A stretch of DNA of 38,081 bases, from NCBI GenBank assembly GCA_022570885.1, contig JACZYW010000003.1:1-38081 (forward strand), read 5' to 3'. This document shows, in pieces, positions 1,560 through 26,497 of this stretch. The notes beneath the pieces are model-generated. The model did no database searches, was not told the DNA's origin, and was given only the letters and a program-made list of their open reading frames with translations. Both the position numbers and the translations under genes were made by a program. Within the stretch, counting starts at the first letter, position 1; every line of letters starts with the position of its first letter. Source of the DNA: Chloroflexota bacterium. Its GTDB lineage: Bacteria; Chloroflexota; Dehalococcoidia; DSTF01; RBG-16-68-14.

Positions 1560-1676
1560 AGCGCCGTCCGAATCCGGCTGGTTCGGTCGGCGGGTGCTCG
1601 CCTTCAAAACGTGACCGCACGGGCCCGTCCGAACGATCTTCGGCCCGGATGCTCTGATGGGAGGAAAGAAGTCCCG

Positions 1677-6902: not shown

Positions 6903-6919
6903 CATCATGGATATCGGTG

Positions 6920-8506: not shown

Positions 8507-9033
8507 TGAGCGCCGCTTCAGCGAACGAGGTCTTGCCCGTCACCCTCGCCGCGGGGGACGAGGCCAGCGGCCTGGCCCGCATCATCTGCCAGTACCTGGA
8601 ACAGCTCTTCGCCGATTCGCAGGAGAAACGAGACGAGGCCGCGAGGCTACGCGGCCATCTCGGTCTGCGTGCTCGCGAGGGCGATGTTGCCATCACCGTT
8701 GCTTTTACCGAGGACGGCGTCGCCGTAGAGGAGGGGCTGCGCGAACCGGATGCTGTCGTGAACGGAGAAGTTGAGTTCCTGATGCACGTGCTGGCCGGAC
8801 GGGCGAATCCCGCCTGGGAAGTCCTTAGAGGTACCGTGGCGTTCCAGCCACGGCCCCTCCGTCCGCTGTTTGGCTATCAGGCCTACCGCGTGATGCGTCT
8901 GCCGCACGTGCATCTATGGAGCGGGCTGCCACGCCCACCGGTTGGTCTCCTGGTGGGCACTGCAGTCTTGGTGAGTGCCGTAGTGCTGGCGCGGCGGCGG
9001 CGAGTGCGAGCTTCGGGTGGTGACGATGGCTGA
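8506..9033 (+). CDS. SCP2-like lipid-binding domain protein with C-terminal membrane anchor
   Basis: ITVAF...VAVEEGLREPDAVVNG...LAGRANPAWEVLRGTV resembles SCP2; C-terminal hydrophobic helix followed by RRRR. The real start is probably GTG 8506 (or ATG 8494), not 8245. Confidence 0.6.
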   Translation: MSAASANEVLPVTLAAGDEASGLARIICQYLEQLFADSQEKRDEAARLRGHLGLRAREGDVAITVAFTEDGVAVEEGLREPDAVVNGEVEFLMHVLAGRANPAWEVLRGTVAFQPRPLRPLFGYQAYRVMRLPHVHLWSGLPRPPVGLLVGTAVLVSAVVLARRRRVRASGGDDG

Positions 9034-10639: not shown

Positions 10640-10649
10640 GGAGCACGTC

Positions 10650-11141
10650 ATGCCCGCCATCTACACAGGACCGTGGTACGACAGCATGAAGGACATCCTC
10701 AACAGCAGCGACGCCGTGACGAAGAACGCGCCACGTGGTGTCTGGCACATCTTGGCCGAGATCCGAGGTGATGGTGCGTCGCCGTACCTCTCGGAAGACG
10801 AGGTGAAGCGCTTCGCCATCGTCCTCAACGACGGCAAGTGCGAAAGCTACGCGGAGCTGACGGAGCCGCCTCCACGCAAGGACTTCCAGTTCATTCTCGA
10901 GCTACCTGCTGTCCTCTTCGAGCGAATCGTCGCCAACCAAGCTGACCCCGTGGAGGCTGGCCTGAAAGGCGCCATCAAGATCATCGGGGACATGCGGGTG
11001 ATGATCCAAAACGCGGAGCTGGTGAAGATCATCTCGGAGATCTACCAGCAGGAGGTCGAGACAGAGTGGCCGAAGGGCATGCCACCGTATCCGGCCTTAG
11101 CGACGGCTCAGGCCGGGGAGTCGATCGGGGGCAGCGCATGA
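10650..11141 (+). CDS. SCP2 sterol-binding-domain-like protein
   Basis: FERIVANQADPVEAGLKGAIKIIGDM matches the SCP2 C-terminal DPxxAxxxGxxKxxGD pattern; AAGGAG RBS. Confidence 0.7.
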   Translation: MPAIYTGPWYDSMKDILNSSDAVTKNAPRGVWHILAEIRGDGASPYLSEDEVKRFAIVLNDGKCESYAELTEPPPRKDFQFILELPAVLFERIVANQADPVEAGLKGAIKIIGDMRVMIQNAELVKIISEIYQQEVETEWPKGMPPYPALATAQAGESIGGSA

Positions 11142-13906
11142 CGTACGCAGGCCTACAGCTCCACGCCCTCGGCACGAAGGAAGCGGGAGAACGCGCTTCA
11201 TACGGTTCATGGCAGGACATCTACCGCGAGAAGTGGACCTGGGACCGGGTGGTGAAGGGAACCTGCAACCGGGCGGACTGCATCTCCGCCTGCTCGCTCA
11301 ACCTGTTCGTGAAAGACGGCATCGTCTGGCGGGAGGAGCAGAACCCGATCTTCGAGCAGACCAACGCCTCGGTCCCGGACTTTAACCCGCGCGGCTGCCA
11401 GAAGGGGATTTGCTACAGCGATCTGATGTACGACCCCTCTCGCATCAAGTACCCGCTGCGCCGCGTGGGCGAACGGGGCTCCGGCAAGTGGGAGCGCATT
11501 TCCTGGGACGAGGCGCTGACCGAGATCGCTGACAAGATCATCGATGTCTGTCTGGAAGACGGGCCGGAGAGCGTCGTCTACGACTTCGGCACGACGAACA
11601 TTGACTTTGGCCCGGGCACTCCGGCTGAGCAGCATCTCACCCGGCTCATAGGCACCACCACGCTGGACGAGTGGGCGGGCGTGGGCGACCTGCCCATGGG
11701 CGCCATCCAGACCTGGGGCCTCTTCAACGCTGACGGCACCTCCGACGACTGGTTCAACGCTGAGACGATCCTCGTTTGGTTGGGCAACCCCGTCTATACT
11801 CGCGTGCCGGACGTCCACTTCATGTGGGAGGCGCGCTACCACGGCACCAAGGTCGTCACCATCGCGCCGGACTACAACGCTACCGCCGTCCATTCCGATC
11901 TCTGGCTGAACCCGCGTGTCGGCACCGACGCCGCACTCGCCCTCGCCATGTGCCAGGTCATCGTAGAGGAAGGGCTGCTCAAGGAGCAGTACGTGCAGGA
12001 ACAGACAGACCTGCCGTTTCTGCTGCGCGAGGACACCCGCCGCTTCCTGCGCCAGTGCGATCTGGTCGAAGGCGGCAAAGAGGATGTCTTCTACGTCTGG
12101 GATCGGGCGTCGAACGAGCCGCGGGAGGCGCCGGGAACGGCCGGACAGGAGGAAGCGTTGATCGCCCTCGGCGATCTCGACCCGGCGCTCGAGGGTAAGT
12201 TCATCGTGAAGCTGGCCGATGGTCAACAGGTATCTGTGCGCCCTGTGTTTGCGCTCCTGCGGGAGCGGCTACGCGACTACACGCCAGAGCTGGCGGCGCA
12301 GATCACCGGCGTCAGCGCCAGCGTGATCCGTCGCCTGGCGCATCAGGTGGCCGAGAGCCGGGCGGTCATGGTCTTCTGCTCCTGGGGCTCCTGTAAGCAC
12401 TACCACATGGACCTCGTCCAGCGCTCGATTATCCTGCTGCTGGCGCTGACAGGCAACACCGGCAAGCGAGGCGCCGGCATGCGTATCGGCGCGTGGTGGA
12501 ACATGTCGCTCAGCTACGACCGCTCCATCGGCTCCCTGGCTGGGGGCGGCGAGCGGGCCAAGGTCCGGGACCTTGAGAAGATGATGAAGGCGCTGATGCG
12601 CGCCAATAGCTCTATGACGCCAGTAATGGTCTGGCTCTACGCGCATGACGAGGGGTATGCCAAGCTCGTCGATACGCCGGCCTACCACGATCCCGACCTC
12701 CCCCGCCCCATAAGCGAGTACATGCGCGAGGCGTTGGACAAGAACTGGATGCCGCTCTATCCGAAGGAAGGCAAAACGCCCCGAGTCTTCCTGTACACCG
12801 GCATGAACCCGCTCCGCCGCTGGCCCGCGCCGGACGTCATCCGCGAGAATCTCTGGGCGAAGCTGGAGCTGATCGTCACCTGGGAGTTCCGTATGTCCAG
12901 CTCGGCTATGTTCTCGGACATCATCCTGCCGGCAGCCGGCTGGCACGAGAAGTCCGGCGTGAAATTCTGCCAGAGCTATGTGCCGTACATCTGCGTGGGC
13001 GAGAAAGCGGTGGAGCCGCTCTACGAGTCGAAGAACGAGTTCGACATTATGGCCAACCTGGCAGCCACGCTCCAGAGGCGCGCGCAGGAGCGGGAGGAAG
13101 GCGTGTATACCGACGCCTTCGGAAACGAGCATGACCTGCGTGAGATCGCTCGCCTCTGGAGCTATGACGGCGAGTTCGGCGAGGGCGATGCGGAGAAGGC
13201 GTTGGAAGTCGCATTCGAGCTCTCGGAGCCGGTCGGCGACGCCTCATGGGCGGATGCGGCGCGCGCCGGCGCGGTACGGGTCAAAAGCACCGGCGGCTAC
13301 GGCCCTATCACTGCCATCACCAGCGATATGCGTGAAGACGAGACCGTCTACCCCTTCGCCTGGTTCGTCGAGGAGAAGGAGCCGTGGCCCACGCTCACCG
13401 GCCGCCAGCAGTTCTACATCGACCACCCGTGGTTCCTAGAGGTAGGCGAGGAGTTGCCGCTGCACAAGGAGCCGCCCCCTGCCGGTGGCAACTACCCGCT
13501 GCGGATGACCGGCGGGCACACCCGTTGGAGCATCCACTCCATCTGGCGCGCCAACCGCACGCTCCTCCGTCTTCAGCGCGGTGAGCCGGTGATGTACGTC
13601 AGCCCGCAGGACGCCGAAGCGCGCGGTCTCAAAGATCATGATCTGGCCCGGGTCCGGAATGATGTGGGCGGGTTCAAGGTTCGCGTCAAGCTGGCGGCTA
13701 GCATTCAGCCTGGGCAGGTGGTGATGTACCACGCCTGGGAGCCGTACCAGTTCGAAGACTGGATAGGCCAGCAAGCGGTCAACGCTTCGCCGTTGAAGCC
13801 GCTTCACCTGGTGGGCGATTATGTCCAGCTCCAGTACCGCTTCGCCCTGGCCCAGCCCAGCCACATCTCACGGGCGATGACGGTGGAGCTAGAGAAGGCA
13901 GACTGA
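11138..13906 (+). CDS. DMSO reductase family type II molybdoenzyme alpha subunit 1 (EbdA/S25dA-like); no Tat signal
   Basis: WQDIYREKWTWD; FS0 GTCNRADCISAC...PRGCQKG; Mo-ligand region WAGVGDLP; TLTGRQQFYIDH; GHTRWSIHS; ATGA coupling to the upstream gene. Confidence 0.93.
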   Translation: MTYAGLQLHALGTKEAGERASYGSWQDIYREKWTWDRVVKGTCNRADCISACSLNLFVKDGIVWREEQNPIFEQTNASVPDFNPRGCQKGICYSDLMYDPSRIKYPLRRVGERGSGKWERISWDEALTEIADKIIDVCLEDGPESVVYDFGTTNIDFGPGTPAEQHLTRLIGTTTLDEWAGVGDLPMGAIQTWGLFNADGTSDDWFNAETILVWLGNPVYTRVPDVHFMWEARYHGTKVVTIAPDYNATAVHSDLWLNPRVGTDAALALAMCQVIVEEGLLKEQYVQEQTDLPFLLREDTRRFLRQCDLVEGGKEDVFYVWDRASNEPREAPGTAGQEEALIALGDLDPALEGKFIVKLADGQQVSVRPVFALLRERLRDYTPELAAQITGVSASVIRRLAHQVAESRAVMVFCSWGSCKHYHMDLVQRSIILLLALTGNTGKRGAGMRIGAWWNMSLSYDRSIGSLAGGGERAKVRDLEKMMKALMRANSSMTPVMVWLYAHDEGYAKLVDTPAYHDPDLPRPISEYMREALDKNWMPLYPKEGKTPRVFLYTGMNPLRRWPAPDVIRENLWAKLELIVTWEFRMSSSAMFSDIILPAAGWHEKSGVKFCQSYVPYICVGEKAVEPLYESKNEFDIMANLAATLQRRAQEREEGVYTDAFGNEHDLREIARLWSYDGEFGEGDAEKALEVAFELSEPVGDASWADAARAGAVRVKSTGGYGPITAITSDMREDETVYPFAWFVEEKEPWPTLTGRQQFYIDHPWFLEVGEELPLHKEPPPAGGNYPLRMTGGHTRWSIHSIWRANRTLLRLQRGEPVMYVSPQDAEARGLKDHDLARVRNDVGGFKVRVKLAASIQPGQVVMYHAWEPYQFEDWIGQQAVNASPLKPLHLVGDYVQLQYRFALAQPSHISRAMTVELEKAD

Positions 13907-13922
13907 GGAAAGGAGCGAAGCC

Positions 13923-14573
13923 ATGCTCGTAAAACGCGTCGAGGTGAACCGTGAGGACCTGTTGGATCCAACCAATGAGGCGTGGCGGCGGACCCGGGGA
14001 AGCAAGACGGTACTTTCGCCAATACCGTTGGCGATGCAGCCCGCGGAGTATGTGCGCGTCTCCTGGGAAGACCGCCCCTATGGCGTGGTGACCAGCATGA
14101 GAGTGACCGCCTTTCACAATGGTCAGGAGATCTTCTTTCGCCTTGTGTGGGACGACGCCACTGTGGACAAGCAGATCGCGGACATCGATCAGTTTGTGGA
14201 TGCCGCGGCCGTGCTATTCCCTGTGGTGCCCGATGCGCCCCTCATCGGCATGGGGGCCGAAGGCAAGCCCGTCAACGCCTGGCTCTGGCGCGCTGACTGG
14301 GAGCAACCGAAGAACGTGGTGGCGGAAGGGATGGGCACAACCAAACGTCGAGAGGATCCTGCCCTCGTCTCGAAAGCCAAGCACCAGCGTGGGCGTTGGG
14401 TGGTGGTCATCTCGCGTTCGTTGAACGGAAAGGACTCGCCGGCTGGAACGGTGAGATTGGAACCGGGCGCCACATCCAAGGTCGCGTTCGCCATCTGGCA
14501 GGGCTCCAACCAAGAGCGAGCTGGCATCAAGGCCTTCTCGCCGGCCTGGCAGGAGCTGGAGATCGAAGCGTAG
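13923..14573 (+). CDS. type II DMSO reductase heme b (gamma) subunit, EbdC-like
   Basis: IFFRLVWDD, FVDAAAVLFP, LIGMG (Met ligand), VNAWLWRA, AFAIWQGSNQERAGIK (Lys ligand). Confidence 0.9.
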   Translation: MLVKRVEVNREDLLDPTNEAWRRTRGSKTVLSPIPLAMQPAEYVRVSWEDRPYGVVTSMRVTAFHNGQEIFFRLVWDDATVDKQIADIDQFVDAAAVLFPVVPDAPLIGMGAEGKPVNAWLWRADWEQPKNVVAEGMGTTKRREDPALVSKAKHQRGRWVVVISRSLNGKDSPAGTVRLEPGATSKVAFAIWQGSNQERAGIKAFSPAWQELEIEA

Positions 14574-14590
14574 CAGAAAGCAGGGCTCTC

Positions 14591-15661
14591 ATGCCTGAGC
14601 AACAGATCGAGCGGCAATTAGCCTTCGTCTTTGACCTCAATAAATGTCTCGGCTGCCAGACGTGCACCATCTCGTGCAAGACGCTCTGGACCGACCAGCC
14701 CGGCATGGAGTATATGTGGTGGAACATCGTCAACACCATGCCTGGCCGGGGCACGCCGCGCGACCGCGACCAGTCCGGCGGCGGGTTCGACGCGCAGGGC
14801 AAAGCGCAAGCCGGCATCTTGCCGAGCGCGCGTGACTTCGGCGAGGCGTGGGAGTTCAACTACGACGAGGTATTCTACGGAGGGAAAGGCCAGTCCGCCT
14901 ACCTCCATCCCCGCCGTCCGGGCAGCAACGGCGATAGCGCGGACGAGGCGCCGGACTGGGGCCCCAATTGGGACGAGGACCAAGGCGCCGGGGAATACCC
15001 CAACAGCTACTACTTCTACCTACCCACCATCTGCATGCACTGCACCAACCCCGCCTGCATGGAGGCCTGTCCTCGCGAGGCGATCTTCAAACGCCAGGAA
15101 GACGGGATCGTCCTCATCGACGAGGAACGATGCTCCGGCTACCGCTTCTGCATGGAGGCCTGTCCTTACAAGCGGATCTACTTCAACCCTAAGCGGTTCA
15201 TCTCGCAGAAGTGCGTGATGTGCTTCGCCCGGCTGGAGCAGGGCGTGGCGCCCGCTTGCGTCCGCCAGTGCCCGGGGCGGGTCCGCCACTTCGGCTACCT
15301 GGACGACCAGGAGAGCGACGTCTACAAGCTAGTGAAGACGTGGAAGGTGGCGATACCCCTCCATCCCGAGTTCGGCACCCAACCCAACGTCTACTACGTG
15401 CCACCGCTCGCTCCGCCTCGTTTCGACGAGAACGGCGATATCGACGAGGAGAATCCGCGCATCCCCATGGAGTACCTCCGTTCGCTCTTCGGCCCCGAGG
15501 TGGATGGGGCGCTGGCCGTACTCAAACAGGAGATGGAGAAGACGCGCAGCGGCGAGCGATCAGAGCTGATGGACCTGCTCATTGCCTACCGCTGGCAGGA
15601 CATGTTCACGCCCTTTGTCGAAGACCCGGGCAAGCTGGATCGGTCACAGGTACGATCGTGA
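14591..15661 (+). CDS. type II DMSO reductase Fe-S (beta) subunit 1, EbdB/NarH-like
   Basis: FDLNKCLGCQTCTISC, CMHCTNPACMEACP, CSGYRFCMEACPY, CVMC...ACVRQCP; WGPNWDED. Confidence 0.94.
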   Translation: MPEQQIERQLAFVFDLNKCLGCQTCTISCKTLWTDQPGMEYMWWNIVNTMPGRGTPRDRDQSGGGFDAQGKAQAGILPSARDFGEAWEFNYDEVFYGGKGQSAYLHPRRPGSNGDSADEAPDWGPNWDEDQGAGEYPNSYYFYLPTICMHCTNPACMEACPREAIFKRQEDGIVLIDEERCSGYRFCMEACPYKRIYFNPKRFISQKCVMCFARLEQGVAPACVRQCPGRVRHFGYLDDQESDVYKLVKTWKVAIPLHPEFGTQPNVYYVPPLAPPRFDENGDIDEENPRIPMEYLRSLFGPEVDGALAVLKQEMEKTRSGERSELMDLLIAYRWQDMFTPFVEDPGKLDRSQVRS

Positions 15662-16338
15662 TGCAGATCGATGCTCTGACGACGCCAGAGGAAGAGACGG
15701 CCGCCGCCCGCAGCAGCCTCTACCGGCTTCTGGCCGATGGCTTCGTCTATCCAGATAAGGCCTGCTTCGCCGCCATCAAGGCGGGCCGCTATCGAGATGA
15801 CGCGCAGGGAATCTGTGACGCTCTTCCCTATGATCTGGAGCCCGCCTACGATGGCCTCGTCGCTTCCGGCACCTACATGGACTTTCAGGCCGAGTACCTG
15901 CGGTTGTTCGAGCTTGGCACAGGCATGCCGCCGTGCCCCCTCTTCAGCGGCCTGTTTCAGGGTGGCCGCAAGGCAGTGATGGAGGAGCTCACCCGCTTCT
16001 ACCACTTCTTCGGCCTCTCGATCGAGCAGGGCAGCGGCGAGCTGCCGGACCACATCACGACCGAGCTTGAGTTCATGCACTTTCTTACGTTCAAGGAGCT
16101 GATGGCGCTACGGCAGGGCGAGGACGCGGTTCCCTGCCGCCGGGCGCAGGCGGACTTCCTGGAACGGCAGCTCGTATCGTGGCTGCCGGCGCTGGAGGAG
16201 CGACTGCAGAAGCTGGAGCCGCCGACGTTCTACGTTGCGTTGGTCTGGCTGACGAGCGCCGTTACCCGGGCCGAACTCGATTCGCTCCGCCAGACACTGG
16301 AACGAACCGCCACGATCCCCCTGGAGGTACGGGCATGA
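15661..16338 (+). CDS. TorD/DmsD-family chaperone (delta subunit, EbdD-like)
   Basis: EYLRLF, ELTRFYHFFGL, ELPDHITTELEFMHFL, QADFLERQLVSW; stop/start overlap with the beta gene. Confidence 0.9.
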   Translation: MQIDALTTPEEETAAARSSLYRLLADGFVYPDKACFAAIKAGRYRDDAQGICDALPYDLEPAYDGLVASGTYMDFQAEYLRLFELGTGMPPCPLFSGLFQGGRKAVMEELTRFYHFFGLSIEQGSGELPDHITTELEFMHFLTFKELMALRQGEDAVPCRRAQADFLERQLVSWLPALEERLQKLEPPTFYVALVWLTSAVTRAELDSLRQTLERTATIPLEVRA

Positions 16339-17450
16339 CCGCTGCCATCTGCATCGTAGGAAGCAAGAACGCCGGAAAGACGTCGCTTATCGAGCGATTG
16401 TTGCCGGAGTTGATAGCCCGCGGCCGCCGGGTAGCCACCATCAAGCACGATGCCCATGACTTCGAGATCGACCTGCCCGGAAAGGACACATGGCGTCACC
16501 GCCAGGCTGGAAGTGGCACGACGATCATCGCCTCTTCTACCAAAGTCGCCATGGTGCGGCTGACGGAACGAGAGGCACCACTGGAGGAGCTGCTTCGTCT
16601 GGTGGACCGCTCCTACGACTTGGTGCTCGTCGAAGGTCTACGCCGTAGTCCGCTGCCGAAGATCCTCGTCCACCGATCGGAACTGGGGCTCGAGCCGCCC
16701 CATGTGCTCGGCGAGGTATGGGCCGTCGTCTCGAACGGCAAGACTGACGTCGCGCCAGCAGCGCCGCGGTTCCGGCCGGACGAGGTAGCTGCCCTGGCCG
16801 ACCTGATCGAGCAGCGGCTGCTGGGCGGGCCGTCGCAGACGCCGGCCTGGAATCTCCCGGCGCTGCTGGCGGAGGCTGGCCGGATGCACGGCCACCTCTG
16901 TCCGGGACAGGTGCTCGGCGTGCGCATGGCGATCCTGGGCTGCGAACGTCTCGGCATCTTCGACCCGAAGTTGTCGAAGCGGCTGATCGCGTTCGTCGAA
17001 ACTGACCGGTGCGGCGCTGACGCCGTCCAGACGGTCACCGGCTGCACACTGGGCAAGCGCACGCTGAAGTTCGTCGATTATGGCAAGCTGGCAGCGACCT
17101 TCCTCGATACCGAAACTGGCCGGGCGGTGCGGGTCGCTGCCCGCGAGAGCGCGCGGGGGGCGTCGGAAAGGTTCGCTCCAGAGGAGTTGGACCCGCATCA
17201 GGCGCAGCTTCGCGCCTACAAAGCCCTGCCCGACGACGAGCTGTTCGCCGTCGAAGAGGTGCGCGTCGCCCTCAGCGAGGCCGACTTGCCCGGGCGGCCA
17301 CGCCATCGCGTGGTGTGTGACTCATGTGGCGAAGAGGTGAACGACGGCCGCGACGTATCGGAGGGCGGCCGGACGCACTGCCGCGCCTGCGCAACCGGCG
17401 CATACTACGCGCCGGTCGGAGAGGCGCAACGAAAGCAGGTGCGGGCATGA
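16335..17450 (+). CDS. mobB: MobB (MGD biosynthesis adaptor) fused to an FmdE/FwdE domain and zinc finger
   Basis: MobB: GSKNAGKT, KHDAHDFEIDLPGKDTWRH, DLVLVEG. FmdE: HGHLCPGQVLG, ETDRCGADA, TGCTLGK. C-terminal CDSC...CRAC. Confidence 0.88.
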   Translation: MTAAICIVGSKNAGKTSLIERLLPELIARGRRVATIKHDAHDFEIDLPGKDTWRHRQAGSGTTIIASSTKVAMVRLTEREAPLEELLRLVDRSYDLVLVEGLRRSPLPKILVHRSELGLEPPHVLGEVWAVVSNGKTDVAPAAPRFRPDEVAALADLIEQRLLGGPSQTPAWNLPALLAEAGRMHGHLCPGQVLGVRMAILGCERLGIFDPKLSKRLIAFVETDRCGADAVQTVTGCTLGKRTLKFVDYGKLAATFLDTETGRAVRVAARESARGASERFAPEELDPHQAQLRAYKALPDDELFAVEEVRVALSEADLPGRPRHRVVCDSCGEEVNDGRDVSEGGRTHCRACATGAYYAPVGEAQRKQVRA

Positions 17451-18106
17451 CAGGCGAAGTGATGGGCGCGGTGCTGGCCGGAGGCCGCGGCCGTCGCATC
17501 GGCGGTGACAAGCCGTCGCTGGAGGTGGGCGGGCAAACGATGGTGCGCCACGCCGTCGATGCTCTGCGTCTGGCAAGGCTAGATGTCACCTTGGTGCTGC
17601 GCGCTCATCAGCCGGTGCCACTCACTGCCCATACGTTTGCTGTCGTCCGAGACGAGGTGGAGAACGCCGGCCCCTTGGGCGGCCTACATGCCCTTCTGCG
17701 CTGGCTGCCGATGGAGTGGACGTTGGTCGTACCATGCGATCAGCCTTTCCTGACGCCGGATCTACTGCGCGGGCTGCTGGTGCAACCGAGGGGAGGCGTC
17801 GACGCCATCGTGGGGCGGCCAGCCAACCTGCCTGAGCCGCTGCCCGGCCTCTACCGCCACACTTGCCTTGGCGCTATCGAAGAGGCGCTAACCCAAGGCG
17901 AGCGCAGCCTCCGGGAGCTCCTCACCAAGCTCCGGCTAAGCGAAGTCCCTAAGACGACGCTCTGCCGGTGGGACCCCCGGCTCCTCTCGTATCTGAACGT
18001 TAACACCCCGGCCGACCTAGAGCGGGCGCGCGCCCTCGCCACGCCGGTCGCGCCGGTTAATAGCGAACACCGCGAGCTTCAAGAGGCCATGAACCATCGG
18101 AGGTGA
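17447..18106 (+). CDS. mobA: molybdenum cofactor guanylyltransferase
   Basis: LAGGRGRRIGGDK, GPLGGL, PCDQPF, EPLPGLY, NVNTPADL; ATGA coupling. Confidence 0.9.
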   Translation: MTGEVMGAVLAGGRGRRIGGDKPSLEVGGQTMVRHAVDALRLARLDVTLVLRAHQPVPLTAHTFAVVRDEVENAGPLGGLHALLRWLPMEWTLVVPCDQPFLTPDLLRGLLVQPRGGVDAIVGRPANLPEPLPGLYRHTCLGAIEEALTQGERSLRELLTKLRLSEVPKTTLCRWDPRLLSYLNVNTPADLERARALATPVAPVNSEHRELQEAMNHRR

Positions 18107-18108
18107 GC

Positions 18109-20940
18109 ATGCCTGGTCGAACGAAAGCCAAGACGAAAGCACCATCGACAGCCGACCGTTATCGCCAGCGCTGGCGCTGGGACAGCGTCGCCTGGGGCAG
18201 CCATTGTGTGGACTGCTATCCCAGCAACTGTCCGTACCGTGTCTTTGTCCGCGATGGCAAGGTGGTGCGGGAGGAGCAGTCGGGCACCTTCTCCACGATC
18301 GAGCCCGGCGTACCGGACATGAACCCCGCCGGCTGTCAGAAGGGCGCCATGTGGAGCCAGATGCTCTACGGCCAGGAGCGGGCTCTCTACCCGATGAAAC
18401 GGACGGGGCCTCGCGGCTCCGGCAAATGGCAACGCGTCTCCTGGGATCAGGCGTTGACTGAGATCGCCGACAAGCTCATCGATACGATCCAGGAGGTCGG
18501 GCCGGAGTCCATCGTACGCATTGGCGCGCCGGCCGAGGGGGGCATGCAGGTGCTCGTCTGCGCGAGCGCGCTGATCAGCCGCCTCGGCGGTATCTCGACA
18601 GACGTGCAGGCGGAGATCAACGACTTCAGCCCCGGCCTCTACACGACCTTCGGCAAGTTCGATCCGGCGCCCAGCGTGGACGACTACTTCCACTCTGAGC
18701 TGATCCTTATCTGGCACTGCAACCCCATCTACACCATCATTCCCTGGTACCACTTTGTCGCCGAGGCGCGCTACAACGGCGCGGAGGTCGCGCTGATTGC
18801 GCCCGACTACAGCCCCTCCGCCCTCCACACCGATATCTTCGCGCCGGTTCGCGTGGGGACAGACGCGGCGTTGGCGCTCGGCATGTGCCAGATCATCATC
18901 GAGGAGGGGCTCTACCACGCCGGCTTCGTGAAAGACCAGACCGACCTGCCGCTGCTGGTGCGGCTCGATAACAGGCGCTTCCTCCGCGCCAGCGATGTGG
19001 ACGGCGGCCGGGACGACCAGTTCTACTGGTTCGACACGAAGACGGAGAGCGTGGTCGAGGCGCCTCGTGGCACCCTTGCCCTGGGCGACGTCGATCCTGC
19101 TCTCGAGGGAGCATTCGAGGCGACGCTGTCTGACGGCTCGAAGGTGCAGGTAACGCCCGTCTTTGTCCTCCTGCGCGAGCTGCTGAACAAGGACTACACG
19201 CCGGAGAAGGCTTCCAAGATCTGCGATGTCCACCCGGACGTGATGCGGCGTATCGCCCGCACGGCGGCCCGCAAGCGTACACGTCTCCTTATGGGCTGGA
19301 ACTCCGGCAAGTACTACCACGGCGACCTGATGGAACGCTCTATGGCGCTGTTCTTGGCCCTCACCGGAAACTGGGGAAAGAAGGGCACAGGCGCTCGCTC
19401 CTGGGCCGTAGGCATGTTCGATGGGATGGGCATCACGCCCGCGAAGGCGGCCCCCGGCCCGGAGGCCGCTCGCCAGATGCTCGCGATGCGCGACCAGGGC
19501 CTGGACGCCCTCAAGGCGGAAGACCCCACGATGACCGACGAGATCGCCGTGGCCGAGCAGGGCTACCGCGCCGCGCGCCTGGGTGGCATGGTGCCGCCCG
19601 TCTTCTTCTGGTACTACCACTGCGGCTACCGCGAGCGCTGGAACAAGGCGGAATGGAACGACCCCAGCATGAAGCGCACGTTCGACGAGTATGTCGAAGA
19701 GGGCATCGAGCGCGGCTGGTGGGAGGGATTCCGCACGCCCGACGAGAAGACGCCGCCCCAGGTGATCTTCGAGATCGGCAGCAATCTGTTACGCCGCCAG
19801 CGCGGCGGCGCGAACGTGCTGCTGAAAGAGCTGTGGCCTAAGCTCAAGCTCATCGTCACGATCGACTGGCGGATGAACACCACCGGCCTCTACTCGGACT
19901 ACATCCTGCCGGCGGCCCATCATTACGAGAAGCCGAATCTCTGCTACCCCGTCCCTGACATCCTCAACATCACGCTCTCGGACAAAGCGGCCGAACCGCC
20001 CGGAGAGGCGAAGTCCGAGTGGCAGATCACGCTCGCCCTGGCAAAGAAGATCGAGGAGCGGGCGAAGGCGCGCAACTTCGTTGAGTATCAGACGCGCGGG
20101 TTTTCCATCCGCCTGGACACGCTGTACAACTCGCTCACGAAAAACGGCGCCCTCGCCGAAGACGACCGGTTCATGGACGAGATGATTCGCGATAGCGTCG
20201 TCGCAGGGGTGCTGCCCAAGGGAACCAATCTGAAGACCCTACGCAAGAAGGGACACGTGCGATTCATCGACTGGGGCAAGAGTCCGATGGCGCTGGCCCA
20301 GGCGTCGGACTTGAAGCCCGACGAGACCATGGCCCCATTCCGCTGGCATACCGAGAAGAAGCAGCCCTTCCCCACGCTCACCCGCCGCGCCCAGTTCTAC
20401 ATTGACCACGACTGGTTCTTGGAGGCCGGCGAGGAGCTGCCCATGCACAAGGAGACGCCCATGCAGGGCGGCGACTATCCGTTCCAGCTCACGTCAGGCC
20501 ACCCGCGGCACAGCATCCACTCGATGAACATGACGAACAAAATAATACTGGAGACGCACCGCGGCCATCCCTTCATGTTCATGAACCCGGACGACGCTCG
20601 CACCTGCGGCGTCGAGGACGATGAGGAGGTGAGCGTCCACAACGACGTGGCGTCCATCCAGATAGCGGTCAAGATCTCCGCCACAGTACGCCCCGGCCAG
20701 GTCATTATCTACAACGGCTGGGAACCCTACCAGTTCCGCAAGTGGAGAGGCGCCGAGAACGTAGAGCCGGGAATGGTGAAATGGCTGCACTTGGCGGGCG
20801 GCTATGGCCACCTCCAGTACCGAAGCATCCATTGGCAGCCGATACCCATCGACCGCGCCATTCACGTAGACGTCACGAAGATCAAGCCGAAGTCCCGGGC
20901 AGTGAACGGCGCTAAGACAAGCCGTCGCCGCCGGCGGTAG
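18109..20940 (+). CDS. DMSO reductase family type II molybdoenzyme alpha subunit 2 (EbdA-like); no Tat signal
   Basis: YRQRWRWD; FS0 GSHCVDCYPSNC...GCQKG; Mo-ligand region AEINDFSPG; KYYHGDLMERS; SGHPRHSIHS. GGAGG precedes ATG 18109 (alternative GTG 18103). Confidence 0.93.
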   Translation: MPGRTKAKTKAPSTADRYRQRWRWDSVAWGSHCVDCYPSNCPYRVFVRDGKVVREEQSGTFSTIEPGVPDMNPAGCQKGAMWSQMLYGQERALYPMKRTGPRGSGKWQRVSWDQALTEIADKLIDTIQEVGPESIVRIGAPAEGGMQVLVCASALISRLGGISTDVQAEINDFSPGLYTTFGKFDPAPSVDDYFHSELILIWHCNPIYTIIPWYHFVAEARYNGAEVALIAPDYSPSALHTDIFAPVRVGTDAALALGMCQIIIEEGLYHAGFVKDQTDLPLLVRLDNRRFLRASDVDGGRDDQFYWFDTKTESVVEAPRGTLALGDVDPALEGAFEATLSDGSKVQVTPVFVLLRELLNKDYTPEKASKICDVHPDVMRRIARTAARKRTRLLMGWNSGKYYHGDLMERSMALFLALTGNWGKKGTGARSWAVGMFDGMGITPAKAAPGPEAARQMLAMRDQGLDALKAEDPTMTDEIAVAEQGYRAARLGGMVPPVFFWYYHCGYRERWNKAEWNDPSMKRTFDEYVEEGIERGWWEGFRTPDEKTPPQVIFEIGSNLLRRQRGGANVLLKELWPKLKLIVTIDWRMNTTGLYSDYILPAAHHYEKPNLCYPVPDILNITLSDKAAEPPGEAKSEWQITLALAKKIEERAKARNFVEYQTRGFSIRLDTLYNSLTKNGALAEDDRFMDEMIRDSVVAGVLPKGTNLKTLRKKGHVRFIDWGKSPMALAQASDLKPDETMAPFRWHTEKKQPFPTLTRRAQFYIDHDWFLEAGEELPMHKETPMQGGDYPFQLTSGHPRHSIHSMNMTNKIILETHRGHPFMFMNPDDARTCGVEDDEEVSVHNDVASIQIAVKISATVRPGQVIIYNGWEPYQFRKWRGAENVEPGMVKWLHLAGGYGHLQYRSIHWQPIPIDRAIHVDVTKIKPKSRAVNGAKTSRRRRR

Positions 20941-20954
20941 CAAAGGAGGCAATC

Positions 20955-21998
20955 ATGGCAGCGAAACAATCACAGACTGCTCCACTGAAGCAGATAGCGA
21001 TGGTGTTCGACCTGAACAAGTGCATCGGCTGCCAGACCTGCTCGGTCGCCTGCAAGGTGCTCTGGACCCAAGAGGAGGGCGAGGAGTACCAGTGGTGGTG
21101 CACGGTCAACACGTTGCCTGGCCGCGGCCATCCCAAGGATTGGGAGCAGATGGGAGGCGGCTATGGTAGCGGTGGTTCCCCTGCAGCCGGACGTCTTCCA
21201 TCTCGAGCGGAGTTCGGCGGCGGCTGGGAATACAACTACGAGGAGGTCTACACCAGTAAGGAACACATCCCGCTCCGGCCTGTCGATAGCAACGGTACGA
21301 CCAGTTGGGGCCCCAACTGGGACGAGGATGAAGGTGGCGGCGAATACCCCAACAGCTACTTCTTCTACATGCCCCGGCTCTGCAACCACTGCACCCGTCC
21401 CGTCTGCGTGGAGGCGTGTCCTCGGGGCGCCATGTCCAAGCGTCCCAAGGACGGCATCGTCCTGCGAGACGAGGACGAATGTCGGGGGTACCGGTTCTGC
21501 ATGGAGGCCTGCCCCTACAAGAAGATCTACTTCAACCTGGCGCGACAGGTAAGCCAGCACTGCATCCTGTGCTTTCCCCGGCTGGAGAAGAACGTCGCGC
21601 CTGCCTGCGTGCGCCAGTGTCCCGGACGTCTCGTCTTTGTCGGATACCTGGACGACGAGGAGGGCCCGATCCACAAGCTGGTGAATCAGTGGCGGGTGGC
21701 ACTGCCCCTGCATCCCGAGTACGGCACCGGCGCGAACATCTTCTACATCCCGCCGCTCGCGCCGTACCGGCTCAACGAGGACAGCAGCCTGGACGAATCA
21801 ACGCCGCGCATCCCCATGGCGGAGCTGGAGCGGCTCTTCGGCCCGCGGGTGGGCTCGGCCCTGGACACGATGCGAACAGAGATGGAGAAGAAGCGACGCG
21901 GGGAGCCATCCGAGTTGATGGATACGCTCATCGTCTATCACTGGAACGAACTGCTGGGCCCCTGGACCCGAGACCCGGCGAGCATCCACTGGCGCTGA
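20955..21998 (+). CDS. type II DMSO reductase Fe-S (beta) subunit 2
   Basis: FDLNKCIGCQTCSVAC, CNHCTRPVCVEACP, CRGYRFCMEACPY, CILC...ACVRQCP; AAGGAGG RBS. Confidence 0.94.
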   Translation: MAAKQSQTAPLKQIAMVFDLNKCIGCQTCSVACKVLWTQEEGEEYQWWCTVNTLPGRGHPKDWEQMGGGYGSGGSPAAGRLPSRAEFGGGWEYNYEEVYTSKEHIPLRPVDSNGTTSWGPNWDEDEGGGEYPNSYFFYMPRLCNHCTRPVCVEACPRGAMSKRPKDGIVLRDEDECRGYRFCMEACPYKKIYFNLARQVSQHCILCFPRLEKNVAPACVRQCPGRLVFVGYLDDEEGPIHKLVNQWRVALPLHPEYGTGANIFYIPPLAPYRLNEDSSLDESTPRIPMAELERLFGPRVGSALDTMRTEMEKKRRGEPSELMDTLIVYHWNELLGPWTRDPASIHWR

Positions 21999-22064
21999 GG
22001 CCGGCGCAATGACGCTTGCCAGACCTTCGGGCCGGGCGCAGGCCTCGACGTCGAAGGAGGCGAG

Positions 22065-25064
22065 ATGTCAAGTAAGCGCGAGCGGCAACTGACGAAAAGC
22101 TCAGGCGACGCGTCGCTTCAGCTTTTGGGCCAGCACATCACCCGCAGGAGCTTCCTAAAGGGCGCCTCGCTGGGTGTGGCCGCACTCTACCTGACGCAGT
22201 TGGGCTGCCGGGGTGGCGAGGAAGGCATCCGCCGCGTCGTCGAGCAGAGCTCCCTCTACGGCAACTGGACCGACCTCTACCGTCAGAAGTGGACCTGGGA
22301 CAAGGTCACCTGGGGGACGCATCTCATCGACTGCTACCCGGGGAGCTGCCTCTTCCGCGTCTACACCAAGGACGGCGTCGTCTGGCGCGAGGAGCAGGCG
22401 GGCCTCTACCCGGAGATCGAGCCCGGCGTGCCGGACATGAACCCCCGTGGCTGCCAGAAGGGCGCCTGCTTCAGCGACGTCATGTACGGGCCAGAGCGAT
22501 TGCGCCACCCTCTGCGGCGTGTTGGCGAACGGGGCGCCGGCAAGTGGGAGCGCATCTCCTGGGACGAGGCGCTCACCGTGGTCGCAGACGGCATGCTCGA
22601 TGCGATGGAGGAGGTGGGGCCGGAGTCGATCATCTACGAGACCGGCCCCGGCAACGGCGGCATCGTCAACGGGCCGCTGCCCGGCTGGCGCCTCTCTCGG
22701 CTGATCGGGGCAACGGTGCTCGATACCAACGGCATGATCGGCGATTTCAACGTCGGCCTCTACGAAACGTTCGGCAAGTTTCAGTTCGTCTCGTCCGTCG
22801 ATGACTGGTTTCACGCCGATCTGATCCTCACCTGGCACATGAACCCTGTCTTCACCCGAATCCCCAGCGCCCACTTTATCTACGAGGCGCGTTACCACGG
22901 CACTCAAGTCGTCAACATCTCGCCGGACTACAACGCCTCTGCCGTTCACGCCGACCTCTGGGTGCCCGTCGAGCCGGGGTCGGACGCGGCGCTGGCACTG
23001 GCCATGTGCCGGATCATCATCGACGAGGGGTGGGTGAACCATGACTTCGTCGTAGAGCAGACGGACCTCCCCCTCCTGGTTCGGCTGGATAACCGCCGCT
23101 ACCTGCGCCAGACCGACCTCGAGCCTGAGGAGCCGGACGCGCGCGATGACCAGTTCTACGTGTGGGATGAGGAGTCCGGCGGACCTGCGCTCGCACCGCG
23201 CGACACGCTGCGAATGAAAGTCCGCCCGGCGCTGGAAGGCCGCTTCGCCGTCGCCCTTCCCGGCGGCGAGCAGATAGAGGTCACGACAGTCTTCGAGCTG
23301 CTGCGCGAGCGGCTGGACGCCTACACGCCAGAGCATGCAGCGTCCATTACCGGTGTTCGGCCTTCGATCATCCGGCGCCTGGCGAAGATGGTTGCGGAGG
23401 CGAAGCGCGTTCACATCTTGCAGGGCTGGAACGTCAATAAGTACTACCACGGCGACCTGATCGAGCGCTCGCAGGCGCTGCTGCTGGCGCTCACCGGCAA
23501 CTTTGGCCGCAAGGGCACGGGCATGCGCGGCTTCAACACCGGCCAGCTCCAGGTGGGAACAGTGGTGAAAGACCACGCCGGCATCGAGGGCTTCATCAAG
23601 CTCGCCGAAAACGTGCTGAGCGTTGAAGAGGAGCTGCTCGCGGAAGATCCCACGCTCACGGAGGAGATGCTCGCCATCGGCGTGGAGCAGGCGGAGTCGC
23701 AGCGGCGGGTGCTCCTGCCTTACCCGTCCGGACCGCTGACTGTCCCAGCCGCCTTCTACTGGTACTGGCACGCCGGCTATAAGGAGGTTTGGAACCGGCC
23801 AGAGTGGTCGGACCCGGCGATGAAGCGGCCGTTGGGCGAGTACTTGGATGAGGCCGTCGCGAAAGGCTGGTGGGAGGGTGTTGCACTACCGCCTCCGGAC
23901 CGGCCGCCGCGCGTGCTCATGGAAGTTGGCTGCTCTACGCTGCGGCGAACTCGGGGTGGCTACAAGATCCTGCGCGAGCGCCTCTGGCCGCAGCTCAAAC
24001 TCATCACCACGGTCGATGTGCGAATGAGCGCCACCGCTCGCCAGTCGGACATCGTGCTGCCGGCGGCAGGCTTCTACGAGAAGACGGACTTTCGCTTCCC
24101 TACGGCCCATATCAATTTCCTCACCTTTACCGAGCAAGCGGTGAAACCCGTCGGCGAGTCGAAGCCCGAGTGGGAGATCTTCTCGCTGCTTGCCAGCAAG
24201 ATTCAGGAGCGCGCCCAGGCCCGCGGCATGACGACGGTCACCGACGCCGACGGCCGCGAGTTCCCGCTCGACCAGCTCGTCGAGCGCTTCTCCATGCACG
24301 GCGCGGTGCGCGAGCACGACGGCGAGGCCCTGGCCGAGGACATGGTGCGCGATACCGTGCGCGTCGGCGCGCTGCCGGAGCGCACCTCTCTCGAGACGTT
24401 TCGCAAGAAGGGCATCGTACGCTTCACGGGCCTGGGCCAGACGGCAGAAGGGCTCAACATGGCGACGGACATCAAGCAAAACGAGACAGTCTCGCCCCTG
24501 CGCTGGCACATCGAGCGGAAGATGCCCTATCCCACTCTCACCCGCCGCATCCAGTTCTACATCGACCATGAGTGGTTCCTGGAGGCGGACGAGGCGCTGC
24601 CTCGCCACAAGCCCAACCCCCGGATGGGCGGCTCGTTTCCCCTCACCATGGTGAGCGGCCATCTCAGATGGAGCATTCACTCCACTTGGGTGGCGAACCG
24701 ACTGATGCTCCAGACACACCGAGGCGAACCATTCCTCATGATGAACCCTCAGGACGCCGTCGCGAGAGGCTTGGCTGATAACGACGAGGTGCGCGTGTAC
24801 AACGACTTCGACGACTTCCATGTGCGCGTTAAGTTCTCGCCGTCGGTGCGGCCTGGGGAGGTGATCATCTACCACGCATGGGAGCCTTACCAGTACCGCA
24901 ACTGGAAGCCGTACGACACCGTGATCCCCGGCATGATCAAGTGGCTCCACCTAGCGGGCGGCTACGGCCATCTCAAGTTCTGGCGCAACAACTGGCAGCC
25001 CCAGCAGGCCGACCGGGCCATTGCCGTAGACGTAGAGAAATCGTCCTCGGAGGCAGTAGTGTGA
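22065..25064 (+). CDS. DMSO reductase family type II molybdoenzyme alpha subunit 3 (EbdA-like) with twin-arginine signal peptide
   Basis: ITRRSFLKG plus h-region; FS0 GTHLIDCYPGSC...PRGCQKG; Mo-ligand region GMIGDFNVG; SGHLRWSIHS; AAGGAGG RBS. Confidence 0.94.
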   Translation: MSSKRERQLTKSSGDASLQLLGQHITRRSFLKGASLGVAALYLTQLGCRGGEEGIRRVVEQSSLYGNWTDLYRQKWTWDKVTWGTHLIDCYPGSCLFRVYTKDGVVWREEQAGLYPEIEPGVPDMNPRGCQKGACFSDVMYGPERLRHPLRRVGERGAGKWERISWDEALTVVADGMLDAMEEVGPESIIYETGPGNGGIVNGPLPGWRLSRLIGATVLDTNGMIGDFNVGLYETFGKFQFVSSVDDWFHADLILTWHMNPVFTRIPSAHFIYEARYHGTQVVNISPDYNASAVHADLWVPVEPGSDAALALAMCRIIIDEGWVNHDFVVEQTDLPLLVRLDNRRYLRQTDLEPEEPDARDDQFYVWDEESGGPALAPRDTLRMKVRPALEGRFAVALPGGEQIEVTTVFELLRERLDAYTPEHAASITGVRPSIIRRLAKMVAEAKRVHILQGWNVNKYYHGDLIERSQALLLALTGNFGRKGTGMRGFNTGQLQVGTVVKDHAGIEGFIKLAENVLSVEEELLAEDPTLTEEMLAIGVEQAESQRRVLLPYPSGPLTVPAAFYWYWHAGYKEVWNRPEWSDPAMKRPLGEYLDEAVAKGWWEGVALPPPDRPPRVLMEVGCSTLRRTRGGYKILRERLWPQLKLITTVDVRMSATARQSDIVLPAAGFYEKTDFRFPTAHINFLTFTEQAVKPVGESKPEWEIFSLLASKIQERAQARGMTTVTDADGREFPLDQLVERFSMHGAVREHDGEALAEDMVRDTVRVGALPERTSLETFRKKGIVRFTGLGQTAEGLNMATDIKQNETVSPLRWHIERKMPYPTLTRRIQFYIDHEWFLEADEALPRHKPNPRMGGSFPLTMVSGHLRWSIHSTWVANRLMLQTHRGEPFLMMNPQDAVARGLADNDEVRVYNDFDDFHVRVKFSPSVRPGEVIIYHAWEPYQYRNWKPYDTVIPGMIKWLHLAGGYGHLKFWRNNWQPQQADRAIAVDVEKSSSEAVV

Positions 25065-26497
25065 TGGCGCTTCTCGACCTCGGCAGCGAGGCTCCGGCCC
25101 GCCGCCTGCCGCTCCGCTTCGACGAGCTGGAGCGGACGACGGCTGAGGCGCTGGCCGACGCCGACCGGCCGCTGGGCACGCTAGGCCACCTGGCGCTGTG
25201 GGCCAACCTGGGCACAGGCCTCTACCTGCTGGTCGTCGGCGCCTGGCTGGTGCCGGCGCTCAGCATCCCCCAGGCGATCGTCGCCACCGTCATCGGCGCC
25301 TCGCTGGGCTCAGCGATGGTGGCCGCGGCGGTGCGGTTGGGGGCGGCCGAGAACCGGCCGGGCGTGGCACTCCACCGAGATGCTCTGGGCAAATCCGGCG
25401 CGAACGTCTACGGCGTCCTCGCAGGCTTTCGACACCTGGCCTGGGGTGCGATCCAGCTCGCCATCGCCGCCGAGGTAGCCGCCGTCGTGATGGCCCGCCA
25501 GGGCATGGGCGGCGGCCGGCCGCTCTGGGCGGCGATCTTCGGAGCGCTGGTGCTCCTCATGGTGCTCGCCGGGCCGAGCACGGTGATCCGTCGCTGGCTG
25601 GTGCCGAGCGTGGCGCTCACGCTGCTCATCGCCGCCGTCTTCGCCTACTCGGCCTGGTCCGACTTCGGCATTTCGGCGATGCTCAAGCGCGAGCCGACGG
25701 GCGGCTGGCCGGGCATGACCGGCGCCGTCGACATCGTCGCTGCCGTCGCTCTCATCTCGCTTCCCGTCGCCACAGACCTTGGACGGCTGGGGAGCGCGCG
25801 GCGGGCAGGCCGCGCCGCCTTCGCCGGACTGGCGGGCATGACGATATGGTTCGTCCTCCTGGGCGTACTCTTCGTGCCGGCTGTCGATGGCCGCGACCTG
25901 GCGGGCTTCCTGCTCGCGACGCCGGCCGGCGCTCTGGTACTGATACTGCTGGTCGTACTCGAACTGGACGGCGCGTTCGTCAGCCTCTACGCGCTGTCTT
26001 CGACAGTGCGCGGCTGGGCGCCGAAGGCGAACGCCGCCCTGCCGGTGGCAGTCGGGGGTGCGGCGGTCTTCGCGCTGGGTGCGGCGCTCCTCGACCCGTT
26101 CAACTTTGGCGACGCGCTCCTGCTGCTGGGCGCTGCCTTCGCGCCACTGCTCGGCGTGCTGCTGGCAGTCAGGCTGGTGCGTCGCTGGTGGTTCCAGGTG
26201 ACGGGGGAAACTCGGCTGCGGCCTGACGGACGGTTGGAGATCATCAGCGGGAGTGTATCGCTGCCAGTACTGGGTGGCGCCTTTGCCTGGGCGATGGGCT
26301 TTCTGCTCTACAACTGGGCGGCGCCGCTAGAGGTGCCTGGATGGACAGCAGCGATGTCGGTCCTCTTTCAAGATGTCCTGCGGCTCCCCTTCCCGGCGGG
26401 CGTGCCTGGCCTGAGCGCTACCGCTCTGGGCTTCGCTGTCGCGTTCGTGGTGGCTGGGGGGTCAACGGCGCTTGGGGCGCGGCGGCATGCCGCCTGA
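25064..26497 (+). CDS. NCS1-family (cytosine/purine, CytX-like) permease
   Basis: About 12 hydrophobic segments; HLALWANLG, LG..GANVYGVL...RHLAWGAIQ, LPVATDLGR, LLGAAFAPLLGVLLA; TGATG coupling. Confidence 0.75.
   Translation: MALLDLGSEAPARRLPLRFDELERTTAEALADADRPLGTLGHLALWANLGTGLYLLVVGAWLVPALSIPQAIVATVIGASLGSAMVAAAVRLGAAENRPGVALHRDALGKSGANVYGVLAGFRHLAWGAIQLAIAAEVAAVVMARQGMGGGRPLWAAIFGALVLLMVLAGPSTVIRRWLVPSVALTLLIAAVFAYSAWSDFGISAMLKREPTGGWPGMTGAVDIVAAVALISLPVATDLGRLGSARRAGRAAFAGLAGMTIWFVLLGVLFVPAVDGRDLAGFLLATPAGALVLILLVVLELDGAFVSLYALSSTVRGWAPKANAALPVAVGGAAVFALGAALLDPFNFGDALLLLGAAFAPLLGVLLAVRLVRRWWFQVTGETRLRPDGRLEIISGSVSLPVLGGAFAWAMGFLLYNWAAPLEVPGWTAAMSVLFQDVLRLPFPAGVPGLSATALGFAVAFVVAGGSTALGARRHAA

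Follow-up and report, generated by a model that had tools for sequence, protein, structure and literature searches.

Leader-bearing and leaderless ethylbenzene-dehydrogenase-type alpha subunits that may share one set of electron-transfer partners in a Chloroflexota bacterium

The window analyzed here is an entire 38-kb contig (JACZYW010000003.1, positions 1 to 38,081) of a metagenome-assembled genome (MAG) of a Chloroflexota bacterium (G000; 2.34 Mb, 238 contigs, 90.8% complete). Within a single-direction gene run (6917 to ~29260), in which several stop and start codons overlap, the operon section 11138-25064 encodes three alpha subunits of the type II molybdenum-bis-pyranopterin guanosine dinucleotide (Mo-bisPGD) enzymes versus two beta, one gamma and one delta subunits. 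Only the third alpha subunit, alpha3, carries a twin-arginine translocation (Tat) leader. We favor, with moderate confidence, the reading that alpha1 and alpha2 are cytoplasmic, that alpha3 is exported by the Tat system and that all three use common beta, gamma and delta subunits, so that enzymes inside and outside the membrane probably draw on a single small pool of electron-transfer subunits.

According to this proposal, the operon would make three molybdenum enzymes of the ethylbenzene dehydrogenase (EBDH)/steroid C25 dehydrogenase (S25DH) type from a reduced set of partners. Alpha1 and alpha2 would assemble with beta and gamma, aided by delta and by the cofactor maturation proteins MobA and MobB, and would remain in the cytoplasm. 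Alpha3 would recruit these leaderless subunits too, gamma together with beta2 or beta1, and the folded complex would then cross the membrane by means of the alpha3 leader, carrying beta and gamma along as in EBDH. Once outside, it would probably stay on the outer face of the membrane, perhaps as a lipoprotein through Cys48.

Distribution of twin-arginine leaders among the three alpha subunits

Tat leaders were called from matches to hidden Markov models and with a custom rule, RRx[FGAVMLIST][LITMVFA] plus a 12-residue window with a mean Kyte-Doolittle hydropathy of at least 1.0. The alpha3 gene (22065..25064, +) encodes a protein whose N-terminus (MSSKRERQ...ITRRSFLKGASLGVAALYLTQLGC) contains ITRRSFLKG, followed by an uncharged hydrophobic region (h-region) of 15 residues and by Cys48; an earlier sequence-only reading of this DNA had pointed to the same motif and hydrophobic region. 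Residues 25-43 match TIGR01409 (TAT_signal_seq) with 22.3 bits, above the cut-off of 16.7. The N-termini of alpha1 (11138..13906, +; 922 aa from the ATG) and alpha2 (18109..20940, +; 943 aa) match no Tat model even at E <= 10, which bears out the earlier claim that alpha3 is alone among the three in having a Tat signal. They reach the conserved WxWD motif at residues 33 (WTWD) and 22 (WRWD), respectively. Upstream of alpha1 the open frame reaches back no further than 10946 (64 codons), and upstream of alpha2 no further than 18064 (15 codons); RR followed by an uncharged hydrophobic run was sought in both open frames and is absent, so the earlier remark that no room is left for a leader was well founded. 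The same reading had described gamma and both betas as free of signals, and their open frames agree: no signal is present in gamma, beta1 or beta2, the frames of gamma and beta2 opening 10 and 13 codons before the ATG, respectively. The machinery for export is encoded in the genome, which has genes for TatC and TatA.

The family models tell the same three alphas apart. Against TIGR03479, alpha3 reaches 997.0 bits and so passes the cut-off of 984.75, with a match that begins at profile position 1; alpha1 (970.7 bits, from position 34) and alpha2 (940.3 bits, from position 46) fall just under the cut-off and lack only the leader columns. The twin-arginine leader of the periplasmic EBDH/S25DH-type hydroxylases is thus present in alpha3 only, and because alpha1 and alpha2 lack it they are relatives, not members, of this exported group. 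Pairwise identities are 41% for alpha1/alpha2, 44% for alpha1/alpha3 and 50% for alpha2/alpha3. None of the three passes the EbdA equivalog model NF042978 (628.6, 861.1 and 830.3 bits for alpha1, alpha2 and alpha3; cut-off 2000), the partner subunits are likewise under the cut-offs of the EbdB, EbdC and EbdD models, and the narG model gives only 227-324 bits for alpha1-3 versus a cut-off of 1084.

All three alphas have, downstream of W-x-W-D, the N-terminal motif His/Cys-x3-4-Cys-x3-4-Cys, which we take to bind the iron-sulfur cluster FS0: GTCNRADCISAC in alpha1 (11240-11275), GSHCVDCYPSNC in alpha2 and GTHLIDCYPGSC in alpha3. The first FS0 ligand position is Cys throughout the leaderless alpha1 clade; it is His in alpha2, in alpha3 and in the leader-bearing sisters of alpha1.

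Conservation of the leader pattern

Homologs were collected from a search of 5.8 billion proteins and scored with the custom Tat rule, and the counts given here are those among the matches listed. No leader was found in the alpha1 homologs of at least 60% identity (0/49), and 65/71 of the more distant alpha1 matches have one; the six others comprise two calls cut off within the leader, two leaderless proteins and two sequences that are fragments or otherwise odd. The best 120 homologs of alpha2 (59-100% identity) gave 0/120, three of them being N-terminally truncated calls. The alpha3 matches carry a leader in 11/11 of the closest and in 90/103 of the remaining cases, and the 13 scored as leaderless consist of eight fragments or start-truncated calls, four leaderless proteins and one ambiguous sequence (P0269).

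An unrooted FastTree phylogeny was computed from 156 rows with the N-terminal leader columns removed; it sampled every second match of alpha1 and alpha3 and every third match of alpha2, all of 880-1100 residues, and included the three alphas of the window. The alpha1 clade (25/25 leaderless, support 99) lies nested within lineages that bear a leader, and the alpha2 clade (43/43 leaderless, support 100) has as its sister the clade that holds alpha3, in which 54/55 have a leader. The tree needs three changes of leader state, one of which is a truncated gene call, leaving two real ones. From the nesting in this unrooted tree we infer that they were losses.

Open frames were also read at the DNA level in 53 related loci, independently of gene callers. 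Among the alpha2-type genes, 54 are leaderless, 4 undetermined and 0 leader-bearing; a leader is present in 18/18 alpha3-type genes, and 14 alpha1-type genes (at least 60% identity) are leaderless. Two further alpha1-type genes, in loci L020 and L051, had been flagged as Tat-bearing, and both flags were rejected, as the RR precedes any start codon or charged residues follow it. The alpha1 orthologs begin at the same Met as alpha1 of the window. Homologous clusters keep the Tat pattern seen here.

These data bear on another explanation of the pattern, namely that the starts of alpha1 and alpha2 were mis-called or that their leaders have just been lost in this MAG. An alternative GTG start of alpha1 at 11066 does have a good AGGAGG upstream, and start calls are generally unreliable. 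However, the longest open frames contain no leader, the ATG of alpha1 overlaps the stop codon of the SCP2-like gene before it (ATGA), which couples the two, and neither the protein matches nor the frames read at the DNA level hold a leader in the orthologs of alpha1 and alpha2. We consider an artefact or recent decay extremely improbable. The sequence-only reading had itself named a recent decay as what would follow if orthologs of alpha1 and alpha2 normally carried Tat leaders, and they do not. Both subunits sit in deep, uniformly leaderless clades, and their leaderless state is old and stable.

Alpha subunits in related genomes

EBDH-type alphas are carried by 10/31 genomes of the order (G000 included), and each of the ten has exactly one alpha that matches from profile position 1. 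The position-1 alphas of all nine relatives were read, and each has RRxFLK, an h-region and (T/L)QLGC; the eight matches that began at profile positions 14-33 proved leaderless on reading. In G005 the remaining alphas are leaderless in their open upstream frames (14/14), and in G007 so are the remaining type II alphas (14/14), next to one Tat protein from a different molybdenum family. Alphas outnumber both betas and gammas in 10/10 genomes that carry them. By our own count from the match tables, which is approximate because of fragments, the alpha:beta:gamma ratio is 3:2:1 in G000, ~7:3:2 in G002, ~15:6:2 in G005, ~16:4:2 in G007, ~12:4-5:2 in G010, ~7:3:1 in G013, ~7:3:2 in G018 and ~5:3:2 in G022. 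For G000 the whole genome was covered, and it holds no type II alpha or beta beyond the three alphas and two betas of the window and no further strong gamma. A weak second EB_dh match (C232:14441-15097, 41.5 bits) was considered as an outside gamma for alpha3 and rejected, being a repeat-like, Asp/Thr-rich frame at a contig end. The open frame concerned (G000:C232:14276-15160) is flanked by near-identical ...ETDKGWTDA.H.QS...W..VTLP ends and resembles a repeat protein.

Leaderless EBDH-type alphas are greatly expanded in some of these genomes of 3-4 Mb (~15 in G005, ~15 in G007 and ~12 in G010), and many of those of G005 are clustered in one contig region (G005:C9, 100-218 kb).

The sequence-only reading had left two alternatives, the sharing of beta, gamma and delta between cytoplasmic and exported enzymes or a supercomplex that hitch-hikes on alpha3; the gene content of the relatives favors the former, and the latter did not find support. 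In such a supercomplex, alpha1- and/or alpha2-beta-gamma would bind the alpha3 complex and be exported on its leader, so that all enzymes would lie outside. The idea draws on the position of alpha3, which in 18/18 loci lacks its own beta, as had been noticed for the window, and adjoins a leaderless alpha2-type gene, often with a single beta between the two; moreover, beta and gamma must themselves hitch-hike if alpha3 is exported. Loci titled Binatia, Deltaproteobacteria or Desulfurellales (L027-L038, L042, L045, L049, L052, L057) also pair one beta with one leaderless alpha2-type and one or two Tat-bearing alphas. On the other hand, G005 and G007 each have 14 leaderless type II alphas versus one with a leader, leaderless alpha2-type genes exist in loci where a Tat alpha is absent within 10 kb (for example L028, L030, L041 and L055), and the depth and uniformity of both leaderless clades are what one would expect of subunits settled in the cytoplasm. 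The solved relatives 2IVF, 4YDD and 1Q16 have one alpha per beta, which we also count against it. Altogether we regard a supercomplex of this kind as highly unlikely.

A narrower variant, in which leaderless alpha2, a single beta and leader-bearing alpha3 form one unit and alpha2 leaves the cell piggy-back on the Tat leader of its paralog, is in our view very unlikely as well. If it were true, a single signal would export two different catalytic subunits, both relying outside on one electron-transfer set. We know of no such alpha-alpha' hitch-hiking complex in the Mo-bisPGD family.

Origin of beta2 and loss of electron-transfer genes

The two iron-sulfur subunits, beta1 (14591..15661, +; TIGR03478 518.9 bits versus a cut-off of 480.7) and beta2 (20955..21998, +; 478.5 bits, 2 bits under that cut-off), have four Cys groups each and are 58% identical. 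At 60-68% identity, the module containing alpha3 reads alpha2-gamma-beta2-alpha3 in most loci; it is alpha2-gamma-beta2-delta-alpha3 in L039 and L043, and L047 has the same five genes as gamma-beta2-delta-alpha2-alpha3. The order of the alpha2 module thus repeats that of the alpha1 module (alpha-gamma-beta-delta) with alpha3 appended, and gene order therefore assigns beta2 to the alpha2 module. In the closest relatives, as in the window, the second gamma and the second delta are gone. In L011, L012 and L020 beta2 is gone too and alpha2 abuts alpha3, with only a divergent beta-alpha pair downstream; in L010 it is alpha1 that has gone, and gamma, beta1 and delta are retained. That duplicated electron-transfer genes have disappeared step by step, with all the alphas retained, is our strongest argument for regarding beta, gamma and delta as interchangeable between leaderless and leader-bearing alphas.

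The same loci speak to the possibility that alpha3 is exported with beta2 only, or alone, and passes its electrons to another acceptor outside, gamma working only for the cytoplasmic enzymes and the betas being dedicated. The order alpha2-beta2-alpha3 would permit an alpha3-beta2 pair, the sole gamma of the window sits in the alpha1 module, and the Binatia-type loci have a beta and alphas, gamma and delta not being found within 10 kb of them. Against this, L011, L012 and L020 retain alpha3 without an adjoining beta2, more distant relatives place a leaderless gamma as well as beta between alpha2 and alpha3, and alpha3 has as its nearest solved relative EBDH, which is composed of alpha, beta and gamma. 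We hold this alternative to be rather unlikely.

The gamma subunit and the alpha3 leader

The gamma gene (13923..14573, +) encodes a leaderless heme b subunit of the EB_dh type (TIGR03477 180.9 bits versus a cut-off of 169.85). Residues 2-214 align with residues 2-212 of EbdC (2ivf_C) at 138 bits, and Met110 and Lys203 align with EbdC M108 and K201, presumably the axial ligands of the heme. This end-to-end alignment with the leaderless EbdC fits the premise of the sequence-only reading that in EBDH the alpha leader exports the folded complex. The gamma homologs of the related loci are leaderless in 43/43 cases, including those encoded right beside alpha3. The delta subunit (15661..16338, +), an assembly chaperone of the NarJ/EbdD type, matches TIGR03482 with 160.9 bits versus a cut-off of 152.3 and occurs in one copy in the operon.

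The h-region of alpha3 is directly followed by a Cys (ALYLTQLGC, residues 41-48, 22185-22208). LTQLGC is kept in 11/11 of the closest homologs and in 9/9 of the relatives' genomes, Lgt and LspA are encoded in G000, and seven other open reading frames of this genome with a Tat motif (contigs C55, C80, C94, C116, C204, C207 and C238) have a lipobox-like Cys followed by a Gly/Ser/Asp-rich linker. A lipid anchor of alpha3 is therefore plausible, and Cys48 may be lipid-modified.

At the N-terminus of alpha1, AGLQLHAL aligns with the distal h-region of the Tat-bearing sisters, and deeper members of the clade keep LRRL, this being a short alignment; what is missing is the RR motif and one half of the h-region. 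The alignment suggests that the N-terminus of alpha1 is a remnant of the distal half of a leader.

Such remnants raise the question of whether all three enzymes could be cytoplasmic, the alpha3 leader being a segment for chaperone binding or for tethering to the inner face of the membrane. Every partner subunit is leaderless, the other alphas of the family are all leaderless, and NarG, according to PMC10609526, retains a Tat-derived N-terminus purely for chaperone binding. Yet T-R-R-S-F-L-K, the 15-residue h-region and the Cys of alpha3 are kept in all of the closest homologs and relatives' genomes counted above, alpha3 exceeds the TIGR01409 cut-off, the genome encodes TatA and TatC, and a true remnant, to judge from the alpha1 clade, looks different. 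We thus rate an entirely cytoplasmic set of enzymes as unlikely.

Several points weigh against the reading that we favor, in which alpha3 alone is exported and the partner subunits are common. If the predicted topology is true, a cytoplasmic electron acceptor for the EB_dh heme b subunit must exist. With PF10518, alpha3 scores 20.3 bits, just under the cut-off of 22.7. The putative lipobox of alpha3 has Gln at position -3, which is atypical of the usual lipobox pattern, and alpha3 orthologs at 60-66% identity mostly lack the Cys. About 12/120 of the alpha2 matches start with MF(G/T)ASLG and may be gene calls that cut a leader short. As G000 is 90.8% complete, its missing part could hold another beta or gamma. 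The genomes compared are kin, and those with a G handle probably overlap the titled loci, so that the counts are not independent. Lastly, evidence of expression comes from contigs of RNA libraries, which can contain DNA: two libraries have identical contig pieces over the gamma/beta1 junction (14407-14827) and in alpha2 (19577-19905), and one has an alpha3 piece (22695-23024). We take these as a weak hint of transcription and read nothing into the operon parts that such contigs leave uncovered.

Comparison with known systems

The closest parallel is EBDH (EbdABCD) of Aromatoleum aromaticum (2IVF), which likewise has an alpha subunit with Mo-bisPGD and FS0, a beta subunit with four iron-sulfur clusters, a gamma subunit with a Met/Lys-coordinated heme b and a delta chaperone. 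The chain 2ivf_A is matched by alpha2 with 814 bits (from chain residue 53) and by alpha3 with 792 bits. In EBDH-type complexes the alpha leader is the sole signal, and the window agrees in that gamma and beta have no signal and alpha3 has a Tat leader. Unlike EBDH, two of its three alphas are leaderless, three alphas are found per two betas and one gamma, and the gene order is alpha-gamma-beta-delta.

Sharing of partners has been described for S25DH and S26DH of Sterolibacterium denitrificans, which we compared by their published description and which resemble the present case in having many paralogous alphas and fewer beta-gamma genes. The authors of PMC6016249 conclude that different alphas have their beta-gamma components in common, with a single chaperone, SdhD, for all of them. 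As stated in PMC7411048, S25DH and S26DH were placed in the periplasm from their Tat sequences, and the sterol pathway of this organism alternates between periplasm and cytoplasm. The alternation of outer and inner steps that we propose for the window parallels that pathway; in Sterolibacterium, however, sharing takes place within one compartment, whereas here most alphas are leaderless and one is exported. Beta-gamma sharing among paralogous alphas is thus already published, and for sharing across the membrane we found no precedent in the open literature. Our search of open-access papers, with subscription reviews and supplements outside its scope, retrieved none on leaderless EBDH-type alphas in Chloroflexi and none in which alphas with and without a leader go with a single beta-gamma set.

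Two other type II enzymes are instructive for alpha1. NarGHJI of Escherichia coli is a cytoplasm-facing member that has lost export and kept a remnant leader, and thus offers a model for alpha1; a NarJ-family chaperone binds this remnant Tat peptide of NarG (PMC10609526). Its heme subunit is the membrane-bound NarI, unlike the soluble EB_dh-type subunit of the window. The best solved match of alpha1 is perchlorate reductase PcrAB (4YDD), with 595 bits versus 586 for EBDH (2ivf). PcrA is a Tat-exported oxyanion reductase, in contrast to the leaderless alpha1, which also has Cys instead of His at the first FS0 ligand position. By these scores alpha1 lies equally far from perchlorate reductase and EBDH, and function is not transferable from PcrAB.

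Genomic context and occurrence

The gene run starts with two flavoprotein genes of the CrtI/CrtO family, each with an SCP2-like gene behind it, followed by alpha1, gamma, beta1 and delta; it continues with MobB-FmdE, MobA, alpha2, beta2 and alpha3 and ends with an NCS1/CytX-like permease, an MFS transporter and a CN-hydrolase. Besides the SCP2-like/alpha1 junction, genes overlap at beta1/delta, delta/mobB, mobB/mobA and alpha3/permease.

The upstream block (6917..11141, +), annotated from Pfam and NCBIfam matches, comprises the flavoprotein genes at 6917-8506 and 9017-10639 and the SCP2-like genes at ~8500-9033 and 10650-11141, and recurs in front of the alpha1 module in L010, L011, L020 and L051. 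The flavoproteins have 529 and 540 aa, and the C-terminus of the first SCP2-like protein consists of a hydrophobic segment and then RRRR. Because CrtI-family flavoproteins and SCP2-like proteins flank the alphas, the substrate is probably a hydrophobic, isoprenoid-like compound. According to PMC11061730, a two-subunit flavoprotein desaturase works with molybdenum hydroxylases in Sterolibacterium; by their pairing, the two flavoproteins of the window recall the two-subunit delta-24 steroid desaturase and limonene dehydrogenase that this source describes as partners of such hydroxylases.

Between delta and alpha2 lie two genes for maturation of the molybdenum cofactor. The first (16335..17450, +) encodes a fusion of MobB, FmdE and a DksA/TraR-type zinc finger (PF03205, PF02663, PF01258), the C-terminal zinc finger being of the C4 type, and the second (17447..18106, +) a MobA-like molybdenum cofactor guanylyltransferase (PF12804; TIGR02665 102.5 bits, under the cut-off of 151.85). 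The fusion gene sits inside the structural operon, between the chaperone gene and mobA, and the fusion is kept in related loci.

A sequence joint from 15551 to 17914, seen in one DNA run and one RNA-library run (X1, X19), skips 2362 bases from the end of beta1 through most of mobA, with 16 other letters inserted. As a variant without delta through mobA it was rejected as too weak (depth ~3.5, one side of 21 letters), and as that side has only 21 letters the joint may come from a related organism.

Downstream of alpha3, the start of the permease gene (25064..26497, +; TIGR02358 98.6 bits, far under the cut-off, and a weak TIGR00800 match) overlaps the alpha3 stop, and a permease homolog lies within 4.5 kb of alpha3 in 14/15 loci that have at least 4.4 kb downstream. 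Both the overlap and the conservation near alpha3 suggest that the permease imports the product of an outer step for the inner enzymes. The NCS1/CytX-like permease and the CN-hydrolase (28265-29260 in the window) are kept beside alpha3 even at 60-67% alpha3 identity.

At the other end of the contig, the region 1611-5854 encodes a cNMP-binding, patatin-like phospholipase and, after it, a protein in which cNMP-binding and FHA domains are joined to those of an ABC transporter (ATPase and ABC-2 membrane).

At least half of the sampled words of the window occur in 11 sequencing runs; all runs holding any number 20, from 10 studies, and are labeled as sediment, marine or marine-sediment metagenomes, except one that is plainly labeled "metagenome".

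Significance for the family

To our knowledge, the biochemically studied enzymes of the EBDH/S25DH group are all treated as periplasmic, and the high-potential heme b of this group is thought to feed a periplasmic cytochrome c. The Chloroflexi family described here reverses this rule, with up to about 15 signal-less paralogs per genome, exactly one paralog with a signal and few betas and gammas. The family also offers a natural experiment on the loss of a Tat leader and on its remains. If the predicted topology is true, the same iron-sulfur and heme subunits would be sorted to either side of the membrane solely by their alpha partner, and in these bacteria of marine sediments the oxygen-independent hydroxylation of hydrophobic, probably isoprenoid, substrates would be split into outer and inner steps linked by a permease.

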